Shown here in pieces: positions 7,484-62,595 of a DNA stretch of 64,000 nt; within the stretch, counting starts at the first letter, position 1; every line of letters begins with the position of its first letter. A program made the position numbers and the translations under genes. The notes beneath the pieces were generated by a model. That model was not told the origin of the DNA and searched no databases. It saw only the letters and a list, made by a program, of their open reading frames with translations. The stretch is from Bacteroidales bacterium. GTDB lineage: Bacteria; Bacteroidota; Bacteroidia; Bacteroidales; UBA3663. The DNA is taken from the NCBI GenBank assembly GCA_004557315.1, contig SFEH01000005.1, forward strand, positions 3,816 to 67,815, in the 5' to 3' direction.

Positions 7484-7728
7484 GCAGAAGCGAGACAATT
7501 ATTTCGATTACTATCATTGCTGCAGCTACGATATGAGGTGGATAGATAAGTCCGACACAAAGGGATGACAATCGGGATTACGACAGACAGCACTATGTAT
7601 GATTTGTTTCATCGTGCAGTCGAGTTTCAGTTCTTTTAAGTGTTCCGTAATTTTTGATTTGTGAAATATTTCTCCTATAATTGGTGCCTGTTTCACGTGG
7701 AACAATGATATATCCCTCTATATATTCA

Positions 7729-7783
7729 GAATCGTTCAAGAATCGTTCAAGAATCGTTCAAGAATCGTTTAAGAATCGTTTAA
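7729..7783. repeat. Tandem repeat, 11-bp unit x5 (gaatcgttcaa x3, gaatcgtttaa x2)
   Basis: Read directly; the units abut with no spacer. It sits just downstream (minus sense) of the tRNA-Ser terminator. Confidence 0.95.
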
Positions 7784-7845: not shown

Positions 7846-7932
7846 CGGAAAGAGGGGGATTCGAACCCCCGGTACAGTCACCCGTACACTGCATTTCGAG
7901 TGCAGCGCGTTCGACCACTCCGCCATCTTTCC
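7846..7932 (-). tRNA. tRNA-Ser (anticodon CGA), class II with long variable arm, no encoded CCA
   Basis: Minus strand: GGAAAGA-TG-GCGGAGTGGTCGAACGC-G-CTGCA CTCGAAA TGCAG-TGTACGGGTGACTGTACC-GGGGGTTCGAATCCCCC-TCTTTCC-G. Has acceptor, anticodon and T stems, a GTTCGAATC T-loop, and discriminator G. Confidence 0.93.
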
Positions 7933-10813: not shown

Positions 10814-11347
10814 TTATTCTCCTTCGTAGGTTATTGGGCAATAAACTTCCGCATCTTCTGGGAACACTTCCCTACCCTTTAGATCGACGAGTTCGATGAT
10901 GCAGTTGATATAGACCTTCTTTACGCCAAGCTTCTTGCAGAGGTCGTAGGCAGCTTTCATTGTGCCGCCAGTAGCCATGAGGTCATCGTGGATGAGCACG
11001 ATATCATCGGCACAGAGGGCGTCCTTGTGGATCTCGATTTTGTCTGTTCCGTATTCGAGGGCATACTCCTGTGAGATGGTCTCTGCTGGCAGCTTGCCAG
11101 GTTTGCGGATGGTGACAAAGCCTGCGTTGATGTTGTTGGCAATTATCGGTCCAAGGATGAAGCCACGGCTCTCGATGCCGAGCACCTTGGTGATGCCACG
11201 TCCAGTGTAGTAGCCTGTCAGTCCGTTGGCGAGTTCGCGAAGGCAAGCAGGGTTCTTGAGTACGGTGGTGATGTCGCGGAACATGATTCCTGGCTTTGGG
11301 AAGTCTGGGACAGTGCGCAGGTTGGCTTTGATCAATTCGGTGTTCAT
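10814..11347 (-). CDS. apt: Adenine phosphoribosyltransferase
   Basis: 177 aa; VPDFPKPGIMFRDIT and PRTase motif VLIHDDLMATGGT. Confidence 0.93.
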   Translation of the reverse strand: MNTELIKANLRTVPDFPKPGIMFRDITTVLKNPACLRELANGLTGYYTGRGITKVLGIESRGFILGPIIANNINAGFVTIRKPGKLPAETISQEYALEYGTDKIEIHKDALCADDIVLIHDDLMATGGTMKAAYDLCKKLGVKKVYINCIIELVDLKGREVFPEDAEVYCPITYEGE

Positions 11348-33217: not shown

Positions 33218-33281
33218 TTTTCTCTTTGTTATTTATTATTGTTAATTTGTTTTCTCTAGCCCATATCGGTTTTGTCTGCTG

Positions 33282-33289
33282 CAAAGTTA
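33282..33289 (-). promoter_or_regulatory. -7 box TAACTTTG (minus strand) for the OM barrel gene
   Basis: Reverse complement of caaagtta. The same tgcaaagttat...tacataa string recurs at the GH26 promoter (52075-52090). Confidence 0.5.
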
Positions 33290-33426
33290 TTATACATAAC
33301 AAAATTATGCAATACTGAGTGACAGACAACCTTCTTTTAGGTACCGAATCCAAGGTTTAGGGATGTTTGTGGTCTTTGTAGGGACGAATAACAATAGAAA
33401 ATCTTGCAAAACTCAATATGTCTGCT

Positions 33427-33434
33427 TACCTTTG
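33427..33434 (+). promoter_or_regulatory. -7 box TACCTTTG for the LytTR gene
   Basis: TAnnTTTG match 19 nt upstream of the ATG at 33453. Confidence 0.55.
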
Positions 33435-33452
33435 CGCATCAATTAATGGTCT

Positions 33453-34382
33453 ATGAAGCAAATCCTTTATTCTCCTGTGTATGGCAGCATTGGTTCGATG
33501 ATTATCCTTGCCTTGCTCCAGCCTTTCGGCATTGACCAACTCGGATCCCAGCGCATACCATTCATCCTTGGTGAGTGCGCTTGTGTCTTTGTGTGCCTGT
33601 TCCTGTCGGAATGCTTTTTCCTATGGGTGTGTCCACGCCTCAGTTCAACAGGCAATGCCAAAAGGAAAGAGTCATCGAGCATCTGGCGTTTAGCCGTAGC
33701 CCTTGCACCTTCCTGCATCATCAATACGTGTCTGGTATCAGCATCTTTGCTGTGTTTCTGCGGCTGGTTTTATTTCGACGATATCTTCAATGGTTGGATC
33801 GGTCCAGAAGGTTTCACGCTTCGACCTTATCTCAATATGACTGCTCAGGTGATGTTTGTTGGTTTTTTTATCTATATCTGGGCAATCTACAGAGCGAGTA
33901 ATGTACAACTAAAGGATGAACTCAGTGAGCTACGTGCGCTCAACAAGCTGCTTGAAGAGCGTCAGGAGGCGGTGGCAACAATGAATGAAGAAAAACAGGA
34001 AGAACCTTGCCCCACAGCCGTTTGCCGCATCGAGGGCAATTACCATAACGACATTCTCGAGATTGATCCTCAGAACATTGTCTATGTCGAGTCAATGTCC
34101 AACTATGCCGACATCTGCTATATGCAGGAAGGCACGATGGAGCATAAGACAATGCGCATCACTCTCAAGCAGCTTCGCGAATCACTTTCGGAAGTCGAAT
34201 GCCTGATGTCGTGCCACCGAGCCTTCATCGTCAACCTCAATTTCGTGGTCTCAATCTCTCCGCGAGTTTCAGGTGGCTACCAGCTCGATGTCTTTGGCTG
34301 CGACAAGCAGATTCCTGTGTCGCGCACTTACATTGATGAGATTAAACAGCGAATGAAAAAAGAAGTAAAAAACAATAAATGA
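33453..34382 (+). CDS. Membrane-anchored LytTR-domain DNA-binding protein, paralog 1
   Basis: About four N-terminal TM segments, a coiled-coil linker (LKDELSELRALNKLLEERQ), and a C-terminal LytTR domain (IVYVESMSNYADICY...CHRAFIVNLNFV...IPVSRTY). No receiver domain. Confidence 0.85.
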   Translation: MKQILYSPVYGSIGSMIILALLQPFGIDQLGSQRIPFILGECACVFVCLFLSECFFLWVCPRLSSTGNAKRKESSSIWRLAVALAPSCIINTCLVSASLLCFCGWFYFDDIFNGWIGPEGFTLRPYLNMTAQVMFVGFFIYIWAIYRASNVQLKDELSELRALNKLLEERQEAVATMNEEKQEEPCPTAVCRIEGNYHNDILEIDPQNIVYVESMSNYADICYMQEGTMEHKTMRITLKQLRESLSEVECLMSCHRAFIVNLNFVVSISPRVSGGYQLDVFGCDKQIPVSRTYIDEIKQRMKKEVKNNK

Positions 34383-34390
34383 GAATAATT

Positions 34391-35185
34391 ATGGCAGAAG
34401 AAACCAAGCTTGTGGCAGTTGTCATTCCGATTTATAAATCGCACTTGTCTGATCAGGACAGAATCTCCCTAGACCAGACCTATAAGGTTCTTGCCCGATA
34501 CCCAATGATAGTGGTACATCCTGAAGGCTTGGATCTGAGCGAATTTCGACGCGACTATCCTGCCTTGCAGTACCAGTCGTTCGACAAGTCCTACTTCAGC
34601 AGTATTGTCGGCTACAACAAGCTGATGCTCGCTGAGGAGTTCTATTTGGCTTTTTCCGACTATCAATACATTCTGATCGACCAGCTCGATGTGTTTATCT
34701 TCAAGGACGAGCTTGAACAGTGGTGTCTCAAAGGCTACGACTATATTGGTGCCCCATGGATTCAGAATAAGATCGGCAGATTGCCGGTCGTCAGGCATTT
34801 CTCAAAGCTCATCGCTTATACTAAGCGACTTTTTGGCAAGAAGAGCAAGTATTACCGTTATGGCAAGGTCGGCAACGGAGGGCTGTCGCTTCGTAAGGTT
34901 CAGAGCCATATCAACGTGATCAGGACTCAGCCGGCACAGGTGCGCCTGTATGCCGAAATCAAAAACCGCCAGCATCTCTACAACGAAGATACGTTCTGGG
35001 CTATGGAGCCTATCGGATTCAAGTATCCAAGCGCCCAGGAGGCAATGCTCTTCTCCTACAACAAATACCCCGAGCAGAGCTACAAGCTCACAAAAGGCGC
35101 AACTCCCTTTGGCTGCCATGGATGGACGAAGCCCAAATACCGAAAGTTCTGGTGCACAAAGGGAGAAGTGCCAACAATGCCATGA
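34391..35185 (+). CDS. DUF5672-like protein (putative glycosyltransferase-like; family recalled from memory)
   Basis: VAVVIPIYKSHLS...YDYIGAPW. The upstream in-frame ATG at 34379 overlaps the LytTR stop (ATGA), so translational coupling is possible. Confidence 0.7.
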   Translation: MAEETKLVAVVIPIYKSHLSDQDRISLDQTYKVLARYPMIVVHPEGLDLSEFRRDYPALQYQSFDKSYFSSIVGYNKLMLAEEFYLAFSDYQYILIDQLDVFIFKDELEQWCLKGYDYIGAPWIQNKIGRLPVVRHFSKLIAYTKRLFGKKSKYYRYGKVGNGGLSLRKVQSHINVIRTQPAQVRLYAEIKNRQHLYNEDTFWAMEPIGFKYPSAQEAMLFSYNKYPEQSYKLTKGATPFGCHGWTKPKYRKFWCTKGEVPTMP

Positions 35186-35309
35186 GGTGTTAAGGTGTTA
35201 AGGCGCTGCGCTTGTTAAGATGTGAAGGTGTTCATTGCCTTTAGAAGAGGCTGTCTGCGCTGTCAAAACAACACCTTAACACCTTCACATCTTCACATCT
35301 TCACACCTT
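35186..35309. repeat. Octamer-armed palindromic element E1, wedged between two convergent stop codons
   Basis: Left arm ggtgttaaggtgttaaggcgctgcgcttgttaagatgtgaaggtgtt. Right arm aacaccttaacaccttcacatcttcacatcttcacacctt. Bounded by TGA at 35183-35185 and the complement TGA at 35310-35312. Confidence 0.9.
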
Positions 35310-37028
35310 TCACATCTCCACGTGGAACCAATCCACATCAACCCATCCGCCAGTCTTCTTGGTTGCATAGTTGAAGATAGCGAACTTACTGCCCATGAAG
35401 TGACGGCGGTAGTCGAAGATCATCTTGATGTCGCGTCCGATGTTCTTCCAGTTGGTGCCGTCGGTGCTGTAGGCAAACGAAGCGAGGTCGCGTCCGTCGT
35501 TGAAGTCAGCATGCAGCCTGAGATAGATGAGCTGCTGGGGCTTCTTGGTGTCAGGAGCCTTGGTCTTCTTTAGGTTGAGTGCAACCTCCTCAATCACTGT
35601 TTCATCGACTTTCTCCACCACCTTATTGTCGTTGAGCACCACATTCTCTTCGGTGAGCTGCAGATAGAGCTTGTTGCCACGCTTCACTACACGGAGCACG
35701 CCACTGTCGCCATTGTATGCAGCCAGACCGCAACGGTCGCCATCTTTCATGTTGGCAACATCGATGCAGACACTGCCTGTGCTCTGAGGTCCGCCAATGC
35801 GCTGAGTGATGGTGTTTGGAGCGACATTGATGTTATCGACTACGCGGGCTGTCTTAAGGCGCAAATATCCTGGGCGGTCAAGCAGACTCCATGCTTCGTC
35901 GATAGGGTTGTGGTTCCATTGCCAGTATAGCTTCAGTCCCTTGTCCTCATGATAGCCCGATTTGCGCATACGGTTGAGTGCCTGAGTTGGGAAATCAAAC
36001 TCGTCGCTGTTGATGATGCCGCGAAGCGAAGGATGCTGCTTTGTGAGGTCGTTAGGAATATGGTAGTTTTTTGGATTCAGGCAAGCCTCGGTGTCGCTTG
36101 GATTCACTCCTTCGTTCAGCTCACCGCACATTGGCCAGCCATCGACCCATGTTACTCGCATCGCACAAGGCACACGGCCTATGCCGCCACGATCCTGGAA
36201 GATGAGTGCCCACCAGTTAAGATCGCTCTGGTCATCACCTACCAGACAGCCTTGGCCTACACCACCATACACCTCGAACGGAGTTTCGAGAATGACGTGC
36301 TTCTCATATGGGCCAGTGATATTGTCGGCACGATAGCAGACCTCACGGCGAACGCGTCCAGGCACATCCCATTTCATCGAGATCATGCAGAGGTAATACT
36401 TGCCATTGTGCTTGATTACGCTGCTTCCTTCGAGCAATGCGCCTCGTTCCTCTGGATCGTCGGCACTATCGACAATCTTCTTGTTCACGCCACCTTCCTT
36501 TGGCTCAAAGTTGTTGTCGAGTTCAACCAGTGTGCAGCCTCCCGAACCAGTAAACATATAGATCTTGCCGTCTTCGTCAAAGAAGAGCGAGCCGTCGTGC
36601 ATGTGAGGCGGACGAGCCACGAGCGTCCAAGGTCCTTCAGCCCTGTCGGCCGAGAAGACAAAGCCTTTGCCAGGAGCGCCATTGGCAGTAAACCACACAT
36701 AGAACTTGCCCATGTGATAGCGGATGCTCGAAGCCCACTGACCTTGTCCATAGACAGTCTTGTTGTCGGTGAGGTTGTAGCGGTCGCCATCGTCGATGCG
36801 GTCAAACACATAGCTGATCGTCTCCCAGTTGACCATGTCCTTCGAACGCATGATAGGTCCTCCAGGCATGAGGTGCATTGTCGTACTGATCATGTAATAG
36901 GTATCGGCAACCTTGCACACGCTGATGTCAGGAACATCGGCATTAATAACTGGATTGCGGAAAGTCTCTTGCGCCTTGATGCTCATTGCAAATACCACAA
37001 CAAGGCATAACATTAAAATTTTTTTCAT
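35310..37028 (-). CDS. GH43 glycoside hydrolase with C-terminal ConA-like beta-sandwich domain
   Basis: Signal peptide. NPVINADVPDISVCKVADTYYMISTTMHLMPGGPIMRSKDMVNWE, GQWASSIRYHMGKFYVWF, LLEGSSVIKHNGKYYL. 572 aa. Confidence 0.85.
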   Translation of the reverse strand: MKKILMLCLVVVFAMSIKAQETFRNPVINADVPDISVCKVADTYYMISTTMHLMPGGPIMRSKDMVNWETISYVFDRIDDGDRYNLTDNKTVYGQGQWASSIRYHMGKFYVWFTANGAPGKGFVFSADRAEGPWTLVARPPHMHDGSLFFDEDGKIYMFTGSGGCTLVELDNNFEPKEGGVNKKIVDSADDPEERGALLEGSSVIKHNGKYYLCMISMKWDVPGRVRREVCYRADNITGPYEKHVILETPFEVYGGVGQGCLVGDDQSDLNWWALIFQDRGGIGRVPCAMRVTWVDGWPMCGELNEGVNPSDTEACLNPKNYHIPNDLTKQHPSLRGIINSDEFDFPTQALNRMRKSGYHEDKGLKLYWQWNHNPIDEAWSLLDRPGYLRLKTARVVDNINVAPNTITQRIGGPQSTGSVCIDVANMKDGDRCGLAAYNGDSGVLRVVKRGNKLYLQLTEENVVLNDNKVVEKVDETVIEEVALNLKKTKAPDTKKPQQLIYLRLHADFNDGRDLASFAYSTDGTNWKNIGRDIKMIFDYRRHFMGSKFAIFNYATKKTGGWVDVDWFHVEM

Positions 37029-37051
37029 AAAAAAAGGTAATGTATTAATAA

Positions 37052-37222
37052 TTAGGTTGTGAGGTTTTGAGGTTATGAGGTTGTGAGGTTGTGAGGTTGT
37101 GAGGTTGCAAGATTCAGTATCTATGAGGATAATTGTCTGCGCGGAGCTACCTTAAAACCTCAAAACCTTAAAACCTCAAAACCTTATAACCTTATAACCT
37201 TATAACCTTATAACCTTATAAA
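37052..37222. repeat. Octamer-armed palindromic element E2 (TGAGGTT / AACCT[CT]A words), intercistronic GH130-GH43
   Basis: Left arm is seven TGAGGTTN-type octamers (37052-37110). Right arm is about nine AACCT(C/T)A(A/T)A octamers (37148-37222), which overlap the GH130 stop at 37216-37218. Confidence 0.9.
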
Positions 37223-38181
37223 GAATTATTCTTAGTCCACTCAATAATCTCATCGATATAACCACAGGCGATGCAGACAGTGGTGTCGGCAGCTCCATAA
37301 TAAAGTGTCACGCGGTTGCCATCGCGCAATGTTGCGCAAGGGAACACGACATTCGGCACATCGCCCGTCATCTCATACATCTCGGCAGGAGCAAGGAGGT
37401 AAGGGCTTGAGCGATACAGCACTTTCGACGGATCGTCCTTGTCGAGAATAGCTGTGCCGAGCGAATAGCGATAGCCGTTGCAGGTGTGGATAACGCCATG
37501 ATAGAACAGCAGCCATCCGTCGTCGGTCAGCATAGGCACCGCGCCTGCGCCAATCTTCAAGCATTGCCATGCGCTCTGTTCGAAAGGAGTGGGCTTCATC
37601 ACAACACGGTGTTTGCCCCAGAAGATCATGTCTGGAGAGTAGCTGATGTAGATGTCACCAAATGGAGTGTGACCATTGTCCGACGGACGGCTCAACATAG
37701 CATACATGCCATTGATCTTCTGTGGGAAGAGCACACCATTGCGGTTGAAAGGCAAGAACGCGTTCTCACACTGGAAGAAATCCTTGAAGTCGAAAGTATA
37801 GCCGATGCCGATGGTCGGACCGTTGTAGCCATTGCACCAAGTGATCCAGTAGCGGTCTTCGATCCAAGTCACACGCGGGTCATATTTGTAGTCGGAATGG
37901 ATGAAGTCAGTATTGCCGCACTTGAACTTGATCGGTTCGTGAGCGATGTCCCAGTTGATGCCATCCTTGCTGAATCCCGCAAAGATGTTCATCTGCACCG
38001 AACGGTTGTCGCAACGGAAGACACCGGCATAGCCGCCATTGAAAGGCACCACCGCACTGTTGAAAATGCTGTTGGCACATGGAATATGATAGCGTCCGAT
38101 AATAGGATTGGCAGAATATCTCCACATAGGTTCGGAGCACTGCTCCGGCCTGTTTTCCCATGGAAAAGAAAGTTCGTTCAT
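37216..38181 (-). CDS. GH130 family beta-mannoside phosphorylase/hydrolase-like protein
   Basis: No signal peptide. [35 protein letters not shown]..., [17 protein letters not shown] at 38181 preferred to the TTG at 38223. Confidence 0.85.
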
Positions 38182-38220
38182 TTCTATGTAGTTTTTGTGT
38201 TTATGACTCAAAAATTGCTG

Positions 38221-38228
38221 CAAATATA
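38221..38228 (-). promoter_or_regulatory. -7 box TATATTTG (minus strand) for the GH130-GH43 pair
   Basis: Reverse complement of caaatata. Lies 40 nt upstream of the ATG at 38181. Confidence 0.5.
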
Positions 38229-38312
38229 TTGTTTATTTGCGCATCTTCAAAAAAATATAACAATATTTATAAAAATATTGCCCGATTCGCTCAATTTGCA
38301 AAAAATATAGCT

Positions 38313-38320
38313 TATCTTTG
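38313..38320 (+). promoter_or_regulatory. -7 box TATCTTTG for the HD-GYP gene
   Basis: TAnnTTTG match 30 nt upstream of the ATG at 38350. Confidence 0.55.
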
Positions 38321-38349
38321 CGCAATCAGTCATGTAAATTAAGTGCTAT

Positions 38350-40392
38350 ATGAATTTTAAGGGAATCGCAGTTTGTCTTTTTTTCTTTGTGCTTGGTTCT
38401 TGCCTGAAAGCTCAGGACTATGTCTATCCGGCCTTGCCTTCAGAGATGTGGGGCATCGAGATATTCAAGGAGCAGGAACAGCAGATGGTCATCGACGAGA
38501 GTTCCTTCATGCCACAGGGCGCTCCTTCGATCGGTGACACCTATGCCAGATATGAGCAGAATCTTGACTTGTTCAATCTGTACAACGACAGTATATATAT
38601 TGATTTGCCTACCGAGGATTGGGTTCAGATGTTCCGCCGCCGAGCCCGCACTCATGCTGCCATCTACAAGGAGAACAACAAGAACCTTACAGCAGTCAAC
38701 AAGTTCTTTGCAGCGGGCAACGTGCCCGACCAAGCTTATGATTTAGTCTATCACTGGTGTGCACACATGCTGTACAACAAGGTTTACGACATCTTCCTGT
38801 GCGAGGAGATGGTGAATCTCATCATGCCTCATTACAGCGAGATCCCCGACGACGAACATCTTGTCCTATGCTATCTTATGCAGGGAATATGCTTCTATCA
38901 GTGTTATCGAATGGGAGAGAGCGGTTCGGAAAAGAAGTCGCTCGACTATTTCAGGAAGGCACTCGAGTTTTCCAACGATTTCGCTCGTTTCGAAAACCCG
39001 CTCAACCGCTATTACCTGTTGTTGGCTTATTTCAACATTATTGTGCTCCACACCCAGCGAGGAACAATCTCGATGGAAGAGAGTCTGGAACTGGCAGAGA
39101 AGATGCGGTCGATTCTCGATAAGCCCGAGAGCCGCAAGATTCTGAATCAGGACAAGAAATTGGCAGAACTGGCCGACTGGGTCACAGCGATGTACAGTTT
39201 CCGTGCCATTACCGCCTATATCAGCCGAGGCGAAGAAAATCCGGCTTTGCGCGACCAGCTCTATGCCTTGTATTGCGATGCAAAGAAGGAGATCGGACTG
39301 AAACCAGCCGATCCGACTCGCTACTACACCAATCTTGAGTACGACGATTGCGTCATCGAGGCATATATGGGACATATCACCTGGGATGAAGCATACGACA
39401 AATTCATGCGTCTTTCCGAACATGACCCCTTCATTGAGACAAAGAAAGGAGAGCTCATAGTCAAGGTTCACTATGTGTACAACATCTATTCTTGTTTCAC
39501 CGAGCTTCTCGACAAGACAAGCCTGACATTTGAGCAGAAGAGCCAGATACTGAAGGAGCATATCGAATTGGCATACGACATGCTGCCAATGCTCGACTAT
39601 AAGGTCTATCCTTATGAGATAGGTCAGATCCTGTCCAACATCATCTGCGACGAGAAGGCACATCGCTATATCGACGAATCGGAGCTTGTCGATTTCATGT
39701 TCCGTCCGTTCGTCATGGAGCAGCCTACCACCTTCGTCCATGTCTCGATGGTGGCCGACTTGTCGCGCATCCTTGCCACGGCACTTGTCGAATACCGCCC
39801 AGGCTTCTTCATCGGAGTGCCTGGATATGAGACTACCAAGGACGTGAAGGCAAAGAAAGACGAGCTCATCGAGTTCATCTATCAGGCTGCACTCTATCAC
39901 GATTTCGGCAAGATCAACATGCCTACCATCATTGGCAACAGCTATCGCCGCATCAACGACCATGAGTATGGAATCATCAAGATCCATCCTGTCCTTTCTG
40001 CTCGCATCCTCGACTCCAATCCAGTGTTGAAGCCATATAGCGATGTGGCGCAAGGACATCATAAGTGGTACAATGGCAAGGGCTATCCATATTCGTTCAA
40101 CAACCGTCAGTCGCCTTATTTCTCCATCATCTGTCTTGTCACTATGTGCGACTGTATGGATGCAGCCACCGAGAATATCAGCCGAAACTACCATTCGACC
40201 AAGACTTTCGAGCGACTGATGCGCGAATACGACGATGCCGCTGCTGCCCAGTACCATCAGGCACTCCTGAAGTTCCTGAACACTCATCCCGAGACCTATC
40301 GCCAGATGAAAGCCTGCATCACCGAGGGCCGCTATTCACAGTACATCGAACTGTATAAGAAATATATCGAGAAGCATTTCCTCACGGATTGA
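38350..40392 (+). CDS. HD-GYP-type HD domain protein with N-terminal signal/lipobox and ~470-aa helical (TPR-like) region
   Basis: MNFKGIAVCLFFFVLGSCLKAQ. C-terminal HVSMVADLS...AALYHDFGKINMP...HPVLSARIL...GHHKWYNGKGYPYSF...MCDCMDAAT matches the HD...HHExxDGxGYP layout with substitutions. Confidence 0.8.
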   Translation: MNFKGIAVCLFFFVLGSCLKAQDYVYPALPSEMWGIEIFKEQEQQMVIDESSFMPQGAPSIGDTYARYEQNLDLFNLYNDSIYIDLPTEDWVQMFRRRARTHAAIYKENNKNLTAVNKFFAAGNVPDQAYDLVYHWCAHMLYNKVYDIFLCEEMVNLIMPHYSEIPDDEHLVLCYLMQGICFYQCYRMGESGSEKKSLDYFRKALEFSNDFARFENPLNRYYLLLAYFNIIVLHTQRGTISMEESLELAEKMRSILDKPESRKILNQDKKLAELADWVTAMYSFRAITAYISRGEENPALRDQLYALYCDAKKEIGLKPADPTRYYTNLEYDDCVIEAYMGHITWDEAYDKFMRLSEHDPFIETKKGELIVKVHYVYNIYSCFTELLDKTSLTFEQKSQILKEHIELAYDMLPMLDYKVYPYEIGQILSNIICDEKAHRYIDESELVDFMFRPFVMEQPTTFVHVSMVADLSRILATALVEYRPGFFIGVPGYETTKDVKAKKDELIEFIYQAALYHDFGKINMPTIIGNSYRRINDHEYGIIKIHPVLSARILDSNPVLKPYSDVAQGHHKWYNGKGYPYSFNNRQSPYFSIICLVTMCDCMDAATENISRNYHSTKTFERLMREYDDAAAAQYHQALLKFLNTHPETYRQMKACITEGRYSQYIELYKKYIEKHFLTD

Positions 40393-40517
40393 GAAGGCAA
40401 AAAATATGCAAAAATATGTATATGATTGGATTTCATGATGGATTGCTATTGTTGTCACCCATTCACAGCATCAATGATATTAATACCGCATCTTCTCGAC
40501 ATGCAAAACGTTTTTTT

Positions 40518-40549
40518 AAAATCGCATCGAGTTAACAGTTAACGTTAAC
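40518..40549. repeat. GTTAAC-rich repeat copy A (aaaatcgcatcgagttaacagttaacgttaac)
   Basis: 32 nt identical to copy C (40976-41007). Its last 28 nt are the inverted complement of copy B, with 1 mismatch. Confidence 0.95.
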
Positions 40550-40612
40550 ACCCTTTTTCATGGTGATGGACAGGCATGAGAAGCGGGTGATGTGCGGTTG
40601 TCGGGGAGTTAA

Positions 40613-40637
40613 TTTTTTTCCCTCGCGAGGAAAAAAA
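40613..40637. repeat. Near-perfect 25-bp palindrome T7-CCCTCGCGAGG-A7
   Basis: tttttttccctcgcgaggaaaaaaa, read directly. Lies inside the A-B segment; a second tcgcgag follows at 40643. Confidence 0.9.
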
Positions 40638-40687
40638 TCTTGTCGCGAGAAGTACCTTGAGAGGTGTTGGTTGAAGAGAGCTGGAGC

Positions 40688-40715
40688 GTTAACGTTAACT
40701 GTTAACTCAATGCGA
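40688..40715. repeat. GTTAAC-rich repeat copy B (inverted orientation)
   Basis: The reverse complement of gttaacgttaactgttaactcaatgcga is tcgcattgagttaacagttaacgttaac, against tcgcatcgag... in copy A. Confidence 0.95.
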
Positions 40716-40975
40716 ATGTGAATTACATCAAGACTCATCTTCGACAGCAAAGCACCATCGCCAGCAAAGCACCTTCAAACATCCACACCCCAACATCTTC
40801 ACTCCTTCATCTCTCAAGGTATTTCTTTTCTGTAATGCTACTAAAAATATTTCTGCTAAAATTGTTTCTGCTATATAAATATATAATAATATAATTTTAA
40901 ACTATTAATATGCGCGCGAGCGCGATATATAATGTATAAAATAACGTTAACCCTCTCGCAATCATTGAAATAAAC

Positions 40976-41007
40976 AAAATCGCATCGAGTTAACAGTTAA
41001 CGTTAAC
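40976..41007. repeat. GTTAAC-rich repeat copy C (direct with A)
   Basis: Exact 32-nt match to 40518-40549. Confidence 0.95.
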
Positions 41008-41196
41008 GCCTTTCGGGTCAGCTTGAATTATTTGATGAGAGCAGTAGTGTTCTCGCGTTTTCAGTTTATAGTTAGCGCAGCCCAAAAGAACTTTAATATC
41101 TATACCAGTTACGAACGTTTGGAACAATTGACTGTTCTCAACCTTCAGTTCTGGTTGTCAAAATTAATTTGCTGACTTTTGATTTCTATAAAGCAT

Positions 41197-41250
41197 AAAA
41201 CAATGCACCGGCTGTCTTTGCATCTGCAAGGCAGTTGGTGCATTGTTTTT
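41197..41250 (+). terminator. Strong hairpin plus U-tract in a gene-free region (orphan or bidirectional terminator)
   Basis: acaatgcaccggctg / cagttggtgcattgt form a 15-bp stem. Its two G-U pairs form only in the plus-strand RNA. Flanked by A4 upstream and T5 downstream. Confidence 0.65.
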
Positions 41251-41345
41251 CAGCAATGAAGATTTTGGTATTAAAAAAGAAATAATGTGACTTATTTCAA
41301 TTCCTCTTCTATCTGCATATATATGCAAAATATCAATACGTCATC

Positions 41346-41378
41346 AACTCGAAGGGAACTCGAAGGAAACTCGAACAA
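41346..41378. repeat. Tandem repeat, 11-bp unit x3 (aactcgaaggg, aactcgaagga, aactcgaacaa)
   Basis: Read directly. A 14-bp palindrome tgcatatatatgca lies about 30 bp upstream. Confidence 0.85.
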
Positions 41379-41481
41379 ACTTGATGTGTTTGAAGCGTGA
41401 GACTTTTGCATATATTACGTAAATCTACCAAAATAGTGATGCTCAAAATATCCAATACAAGATAGTTGCGATATGGATCCT

Positions 41482-57104: not shown

Positions 57105-58064
57105 TTAAGATTTCAGGGATTCTTTGCTATTGCGTTGGGAGCTTGCACATATAGCCTCTTTGATTGCAGCTCTGTTGGGGCGTGACAAAGGAATCTTTTT
57201 GTCTAAGCTGAACAGATTGATGAAGAAGCGGTTGTTGGCTCCTTCAAGCGACTCGACATACATGAGATTGACGAGGAAGGCACGATGGCACTGAACAATA
57301 AATGAATAATCACGCAGTTCTTCCTTCAGCTGTTTTATCGTGGAGCGCAAAGTGCGACTGCTGATTTGTTCGTTATCTATAAAATAGACATTGCTGTAAT
57401 TGCCTACCGATTCGACATAGATGATCTTGCTTGGGATGATGGTGAAGTCTTGAGACGTATTGTCGGTATGCAGAATGACAGGGCATTCTTCTTTATCCTG
57501 TTTGCCATCATGTTTATCATCATCTTCATCTGCTTCTTTTTCAACTTCTTTACCAACTTCCTCTCCATGTTCATTTTCGTCATTTTCATGCTTGCTCTCC
57601 TCTTTCCATCCATTGGCTGCATTCTGGCGTTCGCGAATCATCTTGTTGATGTCCTTGACCTCGTTTAGTTCCTTACGAATATTCCTTATCCAAATGTATA
57701 GCAGTTGAAAGGCGAAGATGATGAGCGAGACAATAAAGATGGTAGGCATGGTAATGAAGAAATAGGCTATTCCGCATACCACACCATAGGTGACACCAAA
57801 TGCAAAGGCACTAATGCACCATACAATGCTAAGGTCTCGGGCACTGTCTCTCGTCGTTCCGCTGTGGCGGAGTAGGTTGAAGCAGACAGCGATGGAGGCA
57901 GACATCAGGAATACGCCTGCCATACAACCAATAATATTCAGGTTGGAGCAGAATTCTCGTTCCATGCTCAACTTCACTTCAAAGGGCTTGAGGATCACCA
58001 GAACAAAAATCGAGCTTACAAACATGAATAGCGTGAGTTTAAGAATTCTTTTAATCTTACACAT
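57105..58064 (-). CDS. Membrane-anchored LytTR-domain DNA-binding protein, paralog 2
   Basis: Four TM segments, an acidic low-complexity linker (HENDENEHGEEVGKEVEKEADEDDDKHDGKQDKEE), and a LytTR domain (IIYVESVGNYSNVYF...CHRAFLVNLMYV...IPLSRPN). Confidence 0.85.
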   Translation of the reverse strand: MCKIKRILKLTLFMFVSSIFVLVILKPFEVKLSMEREFCSNLNIIGCMAGVFLMSASIAVCFNLLRHSGTTRDSARDLSIVWCISAFAFGVTYGVVCGIAYFFITMPTIFIVSLIIFAFQLLYIWIRNIRKELNEVKDINKMIRERQNAANGWKEESKHENDENEHGEEVGKEVEKEADEDDDKHDGKQDKEECPVILHTDNTSQDFTIIPSKIIYVESVGNYSNVYFIDNEQISSRTLRSTIKQLKEELRDYSFIVQCHRAFLVNLMYVESLEGANNRFFINLFSLDKKIPLSRPNRAAIKEAICASSQRNSKESLKS

Positions 58065-58096
58065 TGTAGTTTCGAGTTTTGAGATTTTTCATTTCG

Positions 58097-58104
58097 CAAA
58101 AATA
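58097..58104 (-). promoter_or_regulatory. -7 box TATTTTTG (minus strand) for LytTR paralog 2
   Basis: Reverse complement of caaaaata. Lies 33 nt upstream of the ATG at 58064. Confidence 0.5.
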
Positions 58105-58159
58105 ATGATAATTTCTGATATGTAGATAAATATGGGATAAAATGTATAGATTTGGGATG

Positions 58160-58284
58160 GAAAGATGTGAAGGTGTGAAGGTGTTAAGGCGCTGCGCTTG
58201 TGAAGATGTTCAATGTCTTCAGTAGTGTTTTGTCTTGTGTAGAGTCAATGAACACCTTAACATCTTCACACCTTCACATCTTTC
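58160..58284. repeat. Octamer-armed palindromic element E3 in the LytTR/OM-barrel divergent region
   Basis: gaaagatgtgaaggtgtgaag (58160-58180) is the exact reverse complement of cttcacaccttcacatctttc (58264-58284). The core at 58206-58274 matches 61475-61543 with 3 substitutions. Confidence 0.95.
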
Positions 58285-58340
58285 TGTCCCAAATTGGCTA
58301 ACGTCTATCCCAACCTATTGCCCGAATGAAAAGATTGCTA

Positions 58341-58348
58341 TACCTTTG
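58341..58348 (+). promoter_or_regulatory. -7 box TACCTTTG for OM barrel paralog 2
   Basis: TAnnTTTG match 39 nt upstream of the ATG at 58387. Confidence 0.55.
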
Positions 58349-58386
58349 CACCGCATACAATTACATTTTAAATTAATTATAAACAG

Positions 58387-60534
58387 ATGAGAAGAATAGG
58401 TTTTTTGTTTTTGCTCCATTCGCTGTGCTTTATGGCGGTCGATGGGCAAAACGTTAACTCGACTGATTCGACAGTCTTTCTTAATGAAGTTGAGGTGCAG
58501 TCATTTGTGCCAAAGACAAAGTTGCGTGGCGACGCGATCGTGACCAAGATTCAAGGCTCGGTGCTTGAGAAATCGGGCTCGCTGCACGAGATGCTGGGCA
58601 AGGTGCCAGGGATGATGATGGAGGGTGAAGAACTCAAGGTGATCGGCAAAGGTGTGCCTGTGTTCTATGTCAATGGCCGCAAGCTATATGACACAGAGGA
58701 ACTGAAGCGCATGAGAAGCGAGGAGATCATGGAGGTGGAGGTGATCAACAACCCCGGTGCGCAGTATGACGCGACGGTGAGCGCGGTGGTCAAGATCCGC
58801 ACCCGTCGCCCACAAGGCGAGGGCTTCGGCTTTAACCTGACAGCAGGACATAGCCAGGACTTGCGCCGAGCAGATTTTGCCGACCCCTCAGCAACGATCA
58901 ACTTCAACTATCGCAACAAGGGTTTGGATGTCTTTGGCATGGTCAATCACTGGAATTCGCACACATTACAGGAAGCCACTACCGATCAGCATATCTATGC
59001 CAACGTTGGCAATCAGGTCAATGACAACTGGCAGAAGGGAAAGATAGTTACAAGCACTGCTGGCTATGGAATGAATTATGCGCTGGGTGTCAATCAGGTG
59101 ATAAGCGAAAATCACAGCATGGGCGCACGTCTTCAGATCGACCATCTGTTGAACAACGAGAGTCCGCTGACTCTCGATCAGGATATCTTTAACAATGATG
59201 TCTTCTATAAATCGCTTTTCTCGGAAACTCACACTATCTACGATCATCCAATCGGCTATAATCTCAACTCATACTACAATGGCCGATGGGGAAAGATCGG
59301 CATCGACTGGAACTTCGATTGGGGCAAGAAAGGGGCTGAAGAAAAGATGGACAGCAAGAGCGACGATGTACATTCGCTGAGCGAGGCTTCGAGCAATCTG
59401 TTTGCAACGAAGCTCGTGGTGTCGTATCCTGTGTGGAAAGGAACGGTCAATGCAGGAACGGAAATGACATGGGTGAGGCGTGACATCGATTATGTTATCA
59501 ATCAGGACTATATCTCAGATTCTCATTCCAAGACTAATGAAGACAGTTATTCCGTGTTCGTTGAGTATCTTGCCAATTTCGACAAGTATGGAACGGCAAG
59601 GATTGGTGCTCGCTATGAATGTGTGAACTTTGATTATGTCAATCTTGCAGATGCTGCTGCCAATGTGCGCGACACTCGCCGAGGCATTTACCCATCGATA
59701 TCGTATTCGGTAGGGTTTGGCAGGGTGAATCTTTCGTTGAGCTACAACACCAAGACCGTCCGCCCAAACTTCTATCGTCTGACCGATGCCACTACCTATG
59801 TGAGTCACTCGATGCTGATGCAGGGCAACTCGCAGCTGCGCAATCAGATCAACCATGAGTTGGGGCTCAATGCCCGATGGAGCTGGATCATAGCTTCAGT
59901 CAGCTACACAAAAAACAACCACATGATGACACAATGGTCTTATCCATACATTGGAGAGCAGGTGCCTGTGGAGGAGGGTGTGCAGGTCGTGAGGGTGATC
60001 AACCTCGCCAAGCCTGTAAAGACTCTTGTCAGCTTCGTCAATGCTTCGCCCACTATAGGTATCTACTCTATGAATACAACGGTGGGTTGTCAGAAGCAGT
60101 TTTTCACTGTGGAAGTGGATGACCCTCGTGAGGCTTCGGGCAAACGAACCAAGTCGTATAACGACCCTGTGCTTTTCATCAATTCCAACAATACGTTGCG
60201 ACTGCCTCACAATTGGCAAGTGGAATGTAGCTTGAATGTCAATTCAAAGGGTAATCTGCAAAACTATCGACTGATGAGGTGGAATACAGGCTTGTCCGCT
60301 GCTATTCAGAAGACTCTGCTGCGCAACAAAGCTCTCACCTTGCGGCTTTCAGCCAATGACATTCTGTATCGCACGGGACAGGATATTCTGCTTGACAGCG
60401 GCGACAACGTGATGTATCAATGCAACCGATACTCGTCGCAACGCTTGGTGTTTTCAATTCGCTATGCATTCAATCAAACCAAGAGCAAGTATAAAGGTAC
60501 CGGAGCTGGTGGGGATGCGAAGAACAGAATGTAG
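58387..60534 (+). CDS. Plug-containing outer-membrane beta-barrel protein (TonB-dependent-receptor-like), paralog 2
   Basis: LGKVPGMMMEGEELKVIGKGVPVFYVNGRKL...IMEVEVINNPGAQYDATVSAVVKIRT. C-terminus KYKGTGAGGDAKNRM. Collinear with 31016-33217. Confidence 0.85.
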   Translation: MRRIGFLFLLHSLCFMAVDGQNVNSTDSTVFLNEVEVQSFVPKTKLRGDAIVTKIQGSVLEKSGSLHEMLGKVPGMMMEGEELKVIGKGVPVFYVNGRKLYDTEELKRMRSEEIMEVEVINNPGAQYDATVSAVVKIRTRRPQGEGFGFNLTAGHSQDLRRADFADPSATINFNYRNKGLDVFGMVNHWNSHTLQEATTDQHIYANVGNQVNDNWQKGKIVTSTAGYGMNYALGVNQVISENHSMGARLQIDHLLNNESPLTLDQDIFNNDVFYKSLFSETHTIYDHPIGYNLNSYYNGRWGKIGIDWNFDWGKKGAEEKMDSKSDDVHSLSEASSNLFATKLVVSYPVWKGTVNAGTEMTWVRRDIDYVINQDYISDSHSKTNEDSYSVFVEYLANFDKYGTARIGARYECVNFDYVNLADAAANVRDTRRGIYPSISYSVGFGRVNLSLSYNTKTVRPNFYRLTDATTYVSHSMLMQGNSQLRNQINHELGLNARWSWIIASVSYTKNNHMMTQWSYPYIGEQVPVEEGVQVVRVINLAKPVKTLVSFVNASPTIGIYSMNTTVGCQKQFFTVEVDDPREASGKRTKSYNDPVLFINSNNTLRLPHNWQVECSLNVNSKGNLQNYRLMRWNTGLSAAIQKTLLRNKALTLRLSANDILYRTGQDILLDSGDNVMYQCNRYSSQRLVFSIRYAFNQTKSKYKGTGAGGDAKNRM

Positions 60535-60751: not shown

Positions 60752-61054
60752 CACTGCAATAGCGCAAAAATTGTTATTGCTCAAACTATAAACAACAAAG
60801 TATCAAGATGTTGTAGATTGCTGAAAAATCATTATTGAACGTACCAAACAATCAAACATTTGTAATTGACTGATGTTTGTTTGCCCAATCTCCGCTTGAG
60901 GAGGGAGGACAGCATAAGGTACGTTCTTTGACATATTGATACAACACTTTTTCCCCTGCTTTTTGTGTTTTTATTTTTCAAGATGGAAGCTTCGCAGCGT
61001 CTGTCTTGAGGGTTATTAACCGTCTGTCAATGCGTTTTGTGTTGGCAGACATAA

Positions 61055-61432
61055 ATGTTTATAGTTATGAGATACCGTTTATTACTTACCAATACAGTGA
61101 ATGGAGAGGAAGCGGAAATCGTTGTCCCCTCGTATTTGCCACTCGAAGAGCTTAGCCATAAGATTAAGCTTGAACTTGACTTGCCATTATGCGATAACGG
61201 ATGGCATCGGTTCCAGTCGCTTGGAACTGTCTATGTTATCGACGAGCATCTTTTTGCCGAAACTGAATGGCTGACAAAGTGCAACCTCTATGTCGGCCGA
61301 TACCGCAGCAGCGAAAGAATACGTCTGAAGCACGTGTTCACAGGTATAGGTTCGGCTATTACTTATATTCAGGATGATGAGAATTTCTTCTATATCTTTA
61401 AGATCCGTGTCACTCTGGTGAAAAGGTGTTAA
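61055..61432 (+). CDS. Small protein resembling the pRiA4b ORF-3-like (PRiA4_ORF3) domain (from memory); alternative start 61067
   Basis: YRLLLTNTVNGEEAEIVVPSYLPLEELSHKIKLELDLPLCDNGWHRF... fits the family pattern (YxFKVxL...IWRRIxVP...LxxLHxxIQ...GWxxxHLHxF) only loosely. The last four codons and the stop lie inside element E4. Confidence 0.55.
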   Translation: MFIVMRYRLLLTNTVNGEEAEIVVPSYLPLEELSHKIKLELDLPLCDNGWHRFQSLGTVYVIDEHLFAETEWLTKCNLYVGRYRSSERIRLKHVFTGIGSAITYIQDDENFFYIFKIRVTLVKRC

Positions 61433-61549
61433 GGCGCTTCGCTTGTGAAGGTGTTAAGGTGTTAAGGTGTGAAGATGTTCAATGTCTTCAGTAGTCTGTT
61501 GACTTGTGTAGAGTCAATGAACACCTTAACATCTTCACACCTTAACAAC
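61420..61549. repeat. Octamer-armed palindromic element E4 between convergent genes
   Basis: aaaaggtgttaaggcgcttcgcttgtgaaggtgttaaggtgttaaggtgtgaag...aacaccttaacatcttcacaccttaac. Relative to E3 it carries a 24-nt octamer-repeat insertion in the left arm. Confidence 0.95.
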
Positions 61550-61551
61550 TA

Positions 61552-62595
61552 TCAATCGATTCCTTCGATTGTCTTGATCTTGCCATTCTCGTCCCATTCG
61601 ATCTCGCAAACCTTGAGCGAGCGGAGCCAAGACTTGCCACCAGAAGGCACAGAGTCGTGGTGGAAGAGATACCACTTGCCCTGGAACTCGATTATGGCAT
61701 GGTGGGTTGTCCAGCCAACGACAGGGGTAAGGATCTCGCCCTGATAGGTGAATGGACCATAAGGATTGTCACCTACTGCATAGCAGAGGAGGTGAGAGTC
61801 GCCTGTAGAGTATGAGAAATAGTACTTGCCATCCTTCTTGAATGTCCAAGAAGCCTCGAAGAAGCGATGTGGGTCGTCAGCCTTGAGAGGCTCGCCATTC
61901 TCATCGACAACTACGATAGGACGTGGAGCCTCGGCATAGTTGAGTCCGTCTTTAGTGAGACGCACGCAACGGCTTGGGAGAGCATCGACATGACCTTCTG
62001 GCAGGTATGGAGTCTCGAGATGGATATTGTCCTTATAGCGTTGGAGCTGACCTCCCCAGAGACCACCGAAATAAACATAAACCTCATCGTCGGCATCGTC
62101 GCGGAAAGCGCACATGTCGATGCTGTAGCTGCCAGGTACTGGTGCTGGCTGAGGGATGAATGGTCCTGCAGGATTGTCGGCAATGGCTGTGCCCCAATGG
62201 AACACGTCGTTGCGGTCCTTGAGAGGGAAGTACATGATATACTTCTTCACCTTCTTGCTGAAGCCCAAGCCTGCTGCCTGTTCCTCGGCATTGGTTGGCA
62301 CTTCAACCACATATTCCTGCACGTCGCAATCCCAGAGCTGACGACCTGCCCAAGGGATGTCTTCCTGACGGAGCACACAGCCGTGGTCGGTGACAGTACC
62401 GGTCATTGGGTCACCATCGATCGAAAGGACATGATAGTCCTTCATGATGTACTGGTCACCATTGTCGTTCTCAACATTCGAAGCCTCCCAGTCGTGACTA
62501 GGATAGATATAGATCTTGCCATCGAACACGTGTACCGATGGATCTGCCATATAGTCGGCAGGGAAAAGATAACGCTTTGTTGCCTTTGTAGCCAT
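61552..62595 (-). CDS. GH43 beta-xylosidase/alpha-L-arabinofuranosidase-type enzyme (cytoplasmic)
   Basis: FPADYMADPSVHVFDGKIYIYPSHD, FFEASWTFKKDGKYYFSYSTGD, WTTHHAIIEFQGKWYLFHH. No signal peptide. Confidence 0.88.
   Translation of the reverse strand: MATKATKRYLFPADYMADPSVHVFDGKIYIYPSHDWEASNVENDNGDQYIMKDYHVLSIDGDPMTGTVTDHGCVLRQEDIPWAGRQLWDCDVQEYVVEVPTNAEEQAAGLGFSKKVKKYIMYFPLKDRNDVFHWGTAIADNPAGPFIPQPAPVPGSYSIDMCAFRDDADDEVYVYFGGLWGGQLQRYKDNIHLETPYLPEGHVDALPSRCVRLTKDGLNYAEAPRPIVVVDENGEPLKADDPHRFFEASWTFKKDGKYYFSYSTGDSHLLCYAVGDNPYGPFTYQGEILTPVVGWTTHHAIIEFQGKWYLFHHDSVPSGGKSWLRSLKVCEIEWDENGKIKTIEGID

Follow-up and report, generated by a model that had tools for sequence, protein, structure and literature searches.

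Foldback-type palindromic repeats with octamer-built arms in an uncultured gut Prevotella/Bacteroidales lineage

Introduction

Repetitive extragenic palindromic (REP) elements and REPINs, which are hairpin-forming REP doublets, are mobilised by RAYTs (REP-associated tyrosine transposases, TnpA-REP), enzymes of the Y1 HUH type (PMC6006769; PMC3116915; PMC3733652). For subclass 2.6 of the RAYTs, which is specific to Bacteroidetes, the flanking secondary structures are atypical and have copies elsewhere in the genome; these structures are reported without a consensus foot, and the supplementary table for this subclass includes a 122-nt hairpin from a Bacteroidetes genome (PMC6006769). Another relevant class is that of the MITEs, miniature transposable elements with inverted repeats, represented in the Bacteroidales by 'BrickBuilt' of Porphyromonas gingivalis, which contains a minisatellite (PMC4596501). 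The present work concerns a palindromic element, termed E4, at the 3' end of a gene of glycoside hydrolase (GH) family 43 in a Bacteroidales bacterium (contig SFEH01000005.1, positions 3,816 to 67,815 of the forward strand; this stretch of 64,000 nt is called the window, and coordinates refer to it unless a contig is named). Facing the GH43 gene across E4 is a small open reading frame (ORF), here called the 61055 ORF. E4 is a real feature, beyond chance, and is probably (at a rough probability of 0.6) a copy of a lineage-restricted, non-coding palindromic family of foldback type, a selfish hairpin repeat comparable to REPINs and MITEs with arms that behave like microsatellites.

Other described repeats share parts of this architecture. 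The BOX elements of Streptococcus pneumoniae, a Gram-positive host, follow the scheme boxA-boxB(n)-boxC; they are modular, intergenic and form stable hairpins, and their variable module measures 45 nt. The Foldback (FB) elements of Drosophila are kilobase-sized eukaryotic transposons with long inverted arms of short tandem subrepeats, and the Correia elements of Neisseria duplicate TA. The E-family resembles BOX in its modular intergenic hairpin repeats, one module of which varies between copies and strains, yet its unit of 8 nt stands in both arms, whereas the 45-nt module of BOX is unpaired in register, and the sequences are unrelated. With FB it shares inverted arms of subrepeats that differ in number among copies, as well as an association with rearrangement breakpoints; this likeness is architectural only and implies no homology. 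Bacterial MITEs such as Correia and BrickBuilt are likewise small, non-autonomous, intergenic and restricted to a species, and the full copies of the E-family have terminal inverted repeats, yet no target duplication was seen and no parent insertion sequence (IS) was found in the compared loci. BrickBuilt, too, is a dispersed element that includes an internal tandem repeat whose unit number varies, but its 23-nt units form a single direct array, bounded by small inverted ends, whereas in the E-family two inverted arrays of 8-nt units form the arms. The E-family, with its foldback architecture and microsatellite-like arms, is a variant of a well-known class of bacterial repeats and no new system. 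No description of this hairpin family came up in literature searches, whether by topic or by words of its sequence.

Results and Discussion

E4 and its closest relative, E3

The original prediction, made from the letters of the window, had aligned by eye a 69-nt core of E4 (61475-61543) with positions 58206-58274, which belong to a second element, E3, and had counted three substitutions. This count is exact: 66 of the 69 bases are identical, and the differences (E4/E3) fall at 61496 (C/G), 61498 (G/T) and 61502 (A/T). A 38-nt exact stretch of the core occurs twice in the window, compared to no occurrence in 100 shuffles. Both cores are preceded 5' by a common GC-rich block, TTAAGGCGCT(T/G)CGCTTGTGAAG (61430-61450 in E4 and 58185-58205 in E3), and E4 alone carries 24 nt between block and core, consisting of the octamers gtgttaag, gtgttaag and gtgtgaag, both of which had been described correctly as well. 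Four of the six E4 alleles from different strains have the E3 base at 61496, which implies that the ancestral E4 differed from E3 at two positions only. The cores of E3 and E4 are approximately 97% identical, whereas E4b, a form that occupies E4's own site in other strains, is only about 77% identical to E4. E3 and E4 are of one loop type and are mutually closest relatives, and their near-identity points to a recent common origin.

Both elements fold far more stably than their shuffled counterparts on the two strands, with z values of -6.4 and -7.3 for E4 and of -14.6 and -11.9 for E3. The arms of E3 measure 40 nt and are 93% complementary, with the GC box forming a bulge in the left arm. The central region of E4 contains two small sub-hairpins (about 61471-61489 and 61498-61518), and a one-sided motif conserved in the family, here TGTAGAGTCAA, occupies 61507-61517. 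The GC box is the outer boundary of E4, as set by an insertion-deletion difference (indel) between strains. The parts of E4 and the remaining elements of the window are listed in Table 1.

Table 1. Positions of the palindromic elements of the window, of the parts of E4 and of its immediate surroundings
Feature	Position	Strand	Remarks
E1	35184-35320	+	GC box in left arm, different loop; between convergent DUF5672 and GH43 genes
E2	37051-37225	+	Same architecture, variant octamer GGTTGTGA / ACCTTATA, no GC box
E3, sister copy of E4	58150-58294	+	Between divergent LytTR and OMP_b-brl_3 genes
627-nt segment with the 61055 ORF	60803-61429	+	Missing in E4b strains; junctions share the dinucleotide TA only
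E4, whole element	about 61417-61553		Between convergent 61055 ORF and GH43 gene
E4, octamer-like tail GGTGAAAAGGTGT	61417-61429	+	Overlaps V-K-R-C codons of the 61055 ORF; element membership ambiguous
E4, GC box TAAGGCGCTTCGCTT then GTGAAG	61430-61450	+	Begins with the three bases of the 61055 ORF's TAA stop
E4, inner-left octamers GTGTTAAG GTGTTAAG GTGTGAAG	61451-61474	+	Missing from E3; 2-5 copies among strains
E4, central region common to E3	61475-61519	+	Contains all three E3/E4 substitutions
E4, right arm AACACCTTAACATCTTCACACCTTAACAAC	61520-61549	+	Octamers complementary to left arm; without GC box
GH43 stop TGA	61552-61554	-	Gene 61552-62595, convergent; within degenerate octamer-like stretch ATTGATAG TTGTTAAG

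That these folds represent a family of structured small RNAs or cis-regulatory RNAs, acting through a conserved loop and the repeated octamers, is very improbable. G-U pairs make the plus strand the more stable one in E2, E3 and E4, two compensating wobble changes separate the outer stem of E3 in the window from that in contig L005, and a box of TAnnTTTG type lies just upstream of E3 (there TAGATTTG) and of a copy in contig L015. Nevertheless, the favoured strand differs between copies, independently of the direction of the flanking genes, the loops differ widely among copies, the second sub-hairpin is not conserved though its sequence motif is, and the family is absent from close relatives. 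The asymmetry between G-U and A-C pairs, from which a strand of action might have been read, is striking in E2, E3 and E4, yet inconsistent with the other copies and with gene direction, and was therefore dropped as evidence for RNA. No Rfam family reached threshold: the whole window, searched at the gathering threshold, yielded only a tRNA, and E1, E3 and E4, searched in E-value mode, matched only generic miRNA-precursor models of long hairpins, far below threshold.

Anatomy of the family

The window holds four elements (E1-E4), all of them long imperfect palindromes, for which the chance expectation is about zero. Members of the family measure 120-190 nt and, when full, are ordered as outer octamers, the GC box TAAGGCGCTKCGCTTGT, inner RTGTKAAG octamers, an inner stem GTTCATTG...CAATGAAC, a variable loop and the complementary arm. 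On either strand, the 5' arm is a run of 8-nt units, which read RTGTKAAG in E1, E3 and E4; the unit of E2 on the minus strand, TTTTAAGG / TTATAAGG, is related to these. The loop sequence differs between sites, with one loop type common to E3, E4 and two copies on a mobilisable element, and with TGTCTGCGC common to the loops of E1 and E2. In copies from six independent sites the loop ends in the motif TGTAGNGTCAA, which stands immediately 5' of the C/A-rich inner arm; conserved and one-sided, it confers polarity on an otherwise symmetric element.

The GC box is found in one or both arms. It is confined to one arm in E1, E3 and E4, which leaves their termini unmatched, and is present in both arms of E4b and of a copy in contig L024; E4b ends in terminal inverted repeats of 29 nt that match perfectly, with TA on either side. 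In L017 and L018, two metagenomes, the GC box of one homologous site is on opposite arms, and a diverged homolog of this site (L046) has a minimal form, a 37-nt GC-box hairpin alone. One of the two GC boxes is often lost.

A scan of metagenomes with the GC-box pattern gave 11 loci, and further loci were reached via proteins. In the 549 kb of compared sequence, copies with a GC box occupy 8 distinct genomic sites, to which E2 adds a ninth; the palindrome is thus repeated in intergenic DNA. The flanking genes are convergent at E1 and E4, divergent at E3 and co-directional at the L017/L018 copies and at E2, which lies between a GH130 stop and a GH43 start. Copies are dispersed over unrelated loci, including the mobilisable element, which holds two of the GC-box sites together with a Mob_Pre relaxase, a resolvase and IS4-like transposase fragments and was seen in four metagenomes; it is a plausible vehicle between strains. 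Invertons, CRISPR and retrons were also considered as identities for the palindromes and rejected, the first since the arms are too close and the sites lie between convergent genes, the second for want of a spacer-repeat array and the third of a reverse transcriptase.

The mobilisable element bears other repeats too. Beside the IS4-like DDE transposase fragments stand 35-nt inverted repeats of three units of a different octamer, ATAATGAC (L018 1511-1550 and 4008-4046; L025 3385-3422, 4362-4397 and 6156-6192; L017 794-830), which bracket a 2.5-kb module of small ORFs on this element. Inverted repeats built from octamers are therefore not unique to the family studied here. In the window itself, two paralogous divergent pairs, each of an OMP_b-brl_3 outer-membrane protein and a membrane LytTR regulator, span 31016-34382 and 57105-60534; E1 lies just downstream of the first, past the DUF5672 gene, and E3 inside the second.

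Variation among strains

Of the 12 contigs that reach across the end of this GH43 gene on its 3' side (10 by look-up of the exact protein, L004 and L019 separately), 11 have a family member there, in one of two forms. The E4 form, with an E3-type loop, accompanies the 61055 ORF and is found in the window, L004, L006, L009, L010 and L012, and the E4b form, a full palindrome with both GC boxes and with a loop that matches the E4 loop at only about 77%, in L005, L007, L011, L013, L014 and L019. With the breakpoints marked by a slash, the E4b junction reads aaagTA/AGGCGC, compared to aaagTA/tcaag...ggtgtTA/AGGCGC in the window. The twelfth contig, L008, has a run of N at about 11057-11155, exactly where the element is expected; these hairpins break or mask short-read assemblies, and many of the recovered contigs are short.

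The extra 24 nt of E4 had been taken to suggest growth of the arm by slippage, and the strains bear this out. E4 exists as five length alleles in six strains, with 2-5 inner-left octamers and 3-4 units in the right arm, and the two arms vary independently of each other; in five of the six strains the contig carries the GH43 gene, with an identical encoded protein, and the sixth (L004) has only a GH43 fragment. E2 has 9+6 units in the window, compared to 5+5 in L042, and its arms have amplified different unit variants, namely TGAGGTTG in the left arm and ATAACCTT, in five copies, in the right, which argues for local slippage in each arm, since copying from arm to arm would not give them. Gains and losses of octamers in one arm are thus independent of those in the other, which is the pattern expected from replication slippage in a microsatellite. 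The number of octamers is hence a hypervariable marker by which strains may be resolved in an abundant uncultured gut Prevotella lineage.

E3 is stable in most strains, yet degenerate in L005, where the GC box has been lost and the right arm has decayed. This decay and the variation in unit number argue against strong selection on exact pairing. Strong conservation, offered originally as an alternative to mobility, does not describe an element which is hypervariable, decayed in one lineage and sometimes missing altogether.

E4 may have arisen recently from an E3-type copy, which would have displaced E4b at the GH43 3' end or would alternate with it there. Three routes are conceivable: gene conversion of an E4b-like resident by E3, 3.2 kb away; local duplication; or a single replacement by which an E3-type element came in along with the 61055 ORF, one crossover having fallen within the common CCTTAAC terminus.

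Two further differences were noted in these neighbourhoods. In contig L003, the homolog of the 61055 ORF is interrupted by unrelated DNA that extends to the contig end (5232-5500, corresponding to the window from 61298 onward), possibly an insertion or an assembly join in this one metagenome. In L010, the acidic-repeat part of the LytTR gene has approximately 100 extra bases and a duplication of 55 nt (9813-9914, corresponding to 57495-57549), and no LytTR gene is called in that contig.

Gain and loss of copies

Copies of the family have been gained or lost at individual sites. The window and L042 have a filled E1 site, L026 and L043-46 an empty one. The flanks of L042 and L043 are identical, and the site reads GTGGAG/TTTTAA/GGCATCG when empty and GTGGAG/ATGTGAAGG...CACCTCAT/GGCATCG when filled, so that the element takes the place of 6 bp (TTTTAA). 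The C-terminus of the adjoining GH43 protein tells the two alleles apart, being HVEM* when filled and HVEF* when empty, and both alleles are common among the members of its cluster. In the empty allele the stop codons of the convergent genes overlap, whereas in the filled allele each gene takes a new stop from the first octamer. At the GH43 gene next to E4, a related species whose protein falls in the same 90% identity cluster (L031) ends the gene with GIDE*, followed by an ordinary hairpin-plus-T-run terminator, and no element was found in this relative, either 3' of GH43 or anywhere in 21 kb. The search for presence and absence in related strains, proposed at the outset, has thus distinguished filled from empty E1 and E4 from E4b; the absence at orthologous gene ends in relatives, the polymorphism of E1 and the copies at other loci agree with the mobility or recent common origin then suspected. 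Target-site duplications, proposed along with it as something to look for, did not appear: there is none at E1, the single clean empty site, and E1, E4b and E2 taken together gave none or were uninformative, the TA...TA at E4b being self-complementary and possibly a part of the repeat.

These observations bear directly on a classical DDE-type MITE, that is, a deletion derivative of an IS which moves by cut-and-paste and leaves a target-site duplication. The small size and multiple copies of the elements would suit it, as would the perfect terminal repeats of E4b with TA on both sides, and an IS4-like element, with inverted repeats from the different octamer ATAATGAC, lies in the same mobilisable region. 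Yet the only clean pair of filled and empty sites shows no duplication, the TA of E4b may be the repeat's own, most copies lack one GC box and hence matched termini, no parent IS with these ends was found in the compared loci, and in none of them does a pair of GC boxes enclose a transposase. Such an origin is distinctly unlikely.

Stop codons and gene ends

The 61055 ORF codes for 125 amino acids without a Pfam domain and ends with TGT TAA (61427-61432). Both codons are clearly on the element side of the strain indel boundary. The three codons before them, GTG AAA AGG (V-K-R), are ambiguous: they resemble a pair of octamers, matching the arm consensus at 16 of 18 positions, yet they also align with the K-E-R tail of an element-free homolog in L002. 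This homolog, 74% identical, ends with ...TLKERIQ*, compared to ...TLVKRC* in the window, a difference for which a check had been proposed at the outset, and its end, together with the indel boundary, shows that the Cys codon and the stop are derived from the element. The earlier claim that E4 had swallowed the last four codons and the stop is demonstrable for the Cys codon and the stop, and overstated for V-K-R. On the opposite side, the GH43 stop does abut the other arm, as proposed, with its TGA 2-3 nt past the last paired base.

The octamers themselves account for such endings. GTGAAG and GTTAAG hold TGA and TAA, and since 8 is not a multiple of 3, at least three pure units give a stop in every frame within 24 nt; both strands read the GT-rich arm first (5'), so that this is true for both directions of reading and accounts for the stop of the 61055 ORF being swallowed. 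In the elements as they stand, the majority of frames close within 33 nt and a few stay open for 60-88 nt, and all five gene ends abutting E1, E2 and E4 stop in or directly beside the first unit. An element that lands at a gene's 3' end, or slightly within it, would therefore cost only a residue or two, as from GIDE* to GID* in the GH43 protein at E4 and from HVEF* to HVEM* in that at E1, and the elements consequently abut stops or supply them. In a gene-dense genome this low cost explains the tight abutment without invoking function. In the same manner the family explains small differences between gene 3' ends, the stop being supplied by the repeat. The hairpin probably also has passive roles, at the 3' ends of RNAs or in their processing, and as a site prone to recombination.

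The main rival explanation is that the hairpin serves the host as a selected bidirectional terminator, a stabiliser of mRNA 3' ends or an insulator, whereby the similarity among copies would stem from function; we regard it as unlikely. E1 and E4 do lie exactly between convergent genes, and, like intrinsic (Rho-independent) terminators, they are stable hairpins right after stop codons, at the same gene ends where related species (L029, L031) have ordinary hairpin-plus-T-run terminators. Folding is very stable on both strands, and the copies on the mobilisable element fill intercistronic gaps. Intrinsic terminators, however, are not dispersed sequence families with stems of 40-60 bp; no T-run follows either arm, and a scan for consensus promoters and terminators does not call the elements. 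E3 stands between divergent genes, upstream of the promoter-like TAnnTTTG boxes of both neighbours, which fall outside it. The common empty allele of E1, with its overlapping stops, has no hairpin at all, E3 has decayed in L005, the arms are unequal and hypervariable in length, and no strand is consistently favoured in folding.

Elements at synteny breaks

E2 is found exactly where synteny ends with the lineage in which E1 is empty (L026 and L043-46); this lineage is without the HD-domain and GH130 genes, and its GH2 gene is inverted beside GH43. In L007, synteny breaks 56 nt past E4b. Other breakpoints are away from elements, at 60619 in L006 and inside the 61055 ORF in L003. The coincidence of elements with several synteny breaks in a region rich in glycoside hydrolases suggests that the family may contribute to strain-level variation in carbohydrate use.

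A site of this kind could instead be an attC-like recombination site or cassette boundary, at which a site-specific recombinase exchanges gene cassettes, with the 61055 ORF and the GH130+HD segment as examples. Strains differ in having or lacking the 627-nt ORF segment right outside the GC box, the breaks at E2 and in L007 are as described, and the stop of the ORF lies inside the element, as in many integron cassettes. Yet the order of the motifs is reversed (5'-GTTAAGG...CCTTAAC-3', compared to RYYYAAC...GTTRRRY in attC), no integrase was found nearby among the 39 of 45 larger window ORFs assessed with Pfam, and there is no cassette array. Moreover, the homolog of the ORF in L002 occurs without an element, the breakpoints in L006 and L003 do not involve one, and E1 and E3 are not at cassette borders; altogether, we hold this explanation to be highly unlikely.

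Other repeats were noted in these neighbourhoods. Three copies, two direct and one inverted, of a GTTAAC-rich sequence of 35-38 nt (AAAATCGCATCGAGTTAACAGTTAACGTTAAC) lie at 40515-41013, in a 1.1-kb non-coding gap between the HD-domain and GH2 genes, and are kept in L042; this gap is the far end of the segment of approximately 4.4 kb with HD and GH130 (37029-41481) that is missing from the lineage with empty E1. In that lineage, a one-directional array of GTGTCAAA four times (TAGGGTGTCAAAGTGTCAAAGTGTCAAAGTGTCAAACTCA; L044 173-212, L045 197-236, L046 544-583) stands just past the end of a small ORF, about 200 nt past the 3' end of GH2.

Mobility and relation to REP elements

The E-family resembles REP/REPIN elements in that its members are dispersed, non-coding intergenic palindromes, mostly downstream of genes and restricted to a lineage. 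A hairpin and a short asymmetric motif are conserved, G-T pairs are tolerated, and the one testable site, E1, shows no target duplication, though 6 bp were replaced. The hairpins are also comparable to the subclass 2.6 entries, which include that of 122 nt. We infer that the family is selfish or neutral DNA of the REP/REPIN/MITE kind. It differs from described REPs and REPINs in that its arms are tandem octamer runs of variable copy number, and from REPs also in its feet, which read NAG, the end of a degenerate octamer, in place of GT[AG]G/CGTC; GTAG is conserved only within the loop motif TGTAGNGTCAA.

Several findings weigh against the reading as a mobile selfish repeat. Pfam, applied to 39 of the 45 larger ORFs of the window, gave no transposase, integrase or Y1 gene, and a regular-expression search for HUH/Y1 motifs found none in six-frame translations of the window and of 46 loci (549 kb); with neither a transposase nor a RAYT in this material, mobilisation is something that we infer. 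The single clean empty site, E1, records a 6-bp replacement and not a simple insertion, and whether it was an insertion or a loss is judged only from outgroups that lack the element and differ in synteny. Very different forms, of 37 nt up to about 190 nt and with the GC box in opposite arms, occupy homologous sites of the mobilisable element, which indicates that much of the diversity arises in place and that transposition may be rare. The canonical GTAG foot of classical REPs is absent outside the stem. Finally, 185,579 reference genomes gave one match, to the 22-nt GC-box pattern, in a truncated copy from a Bacteroidales metagenome-assembled genome (MAG), and finds of the family were confined to a narrow range of gut metagenomes.

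If the elements are indeed mobile, they might spread as single-stranded hairpins by means of an HUH/Y1 (RAYT-like) enzyme rather than a DDE transposase. The lack of a target duplication at one clean site, the conserved stem with its asymmetric GTAG-containing motif and the record of Bacteroidetes RAYTs with atypical long hairpins would favour such an enzyme, and thus point weakly to a Bacteroidetes RAYT as the candidate. A bolder version, which is doubtful, would have the family as the REPIN-equivalents of a Prevotella RAYT (Y1 HUH, subclass 2.6), of an undescribed 'foldback' type: the octamer arms would expand by themselves, TGTAGNGTCAA would be the guide or cleavage site, and the hairpins would be preferred breakpoints at which glycan-utilisation segments are swapped between strains. 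Were the family tied to a Bacteroidetes RAYT, it would give sequence-level content to the 'atypical secondary structures' of subclass 2.6, and would provide a bacterial example of foldback-type repeats with slippage-grown arms. As to the original prediction, its ideas of slippage and mobility were largely right.

Distribution and additional repeats

The exact GH43 protein is annotated as Bacteroidales bacterium in NCBI MAGs, close members of its cluster are from Prevotella sp., and the samples with the family are pig-gut and some human-gut metagenomes. The host is thus an uncultured Prevotella/Bacteroidales bacterium of the pig and human gut, and the family is restricted to its lineage. A phage collection gave no match, and a plasmid collection gave one irrelevant match, in Klebsiella, to a tandem GTGAAGGT array. 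Scans of viral contigs with four patterns found no GC box, and the octamer patterns matched only unrelated one-directional arrays in phage contigs of enterobacterial type. In four of these (L034-L037, from IMG/VR), a variable GTGAAGGT array of 3-7 units lies beside GCTGGTGG, which is Chi-like; this array shares an octamer word with the hairpin family, yet is unrelated to it, and accounts for the Klebsiella plasmid match. Elsewhere in the window, an 11-nt tandem repeat, AGAATCGTT(C/T)A, occurs five times at 7728-7782, 64 nt from a tRNA gene on the minus strand (7846-7932).

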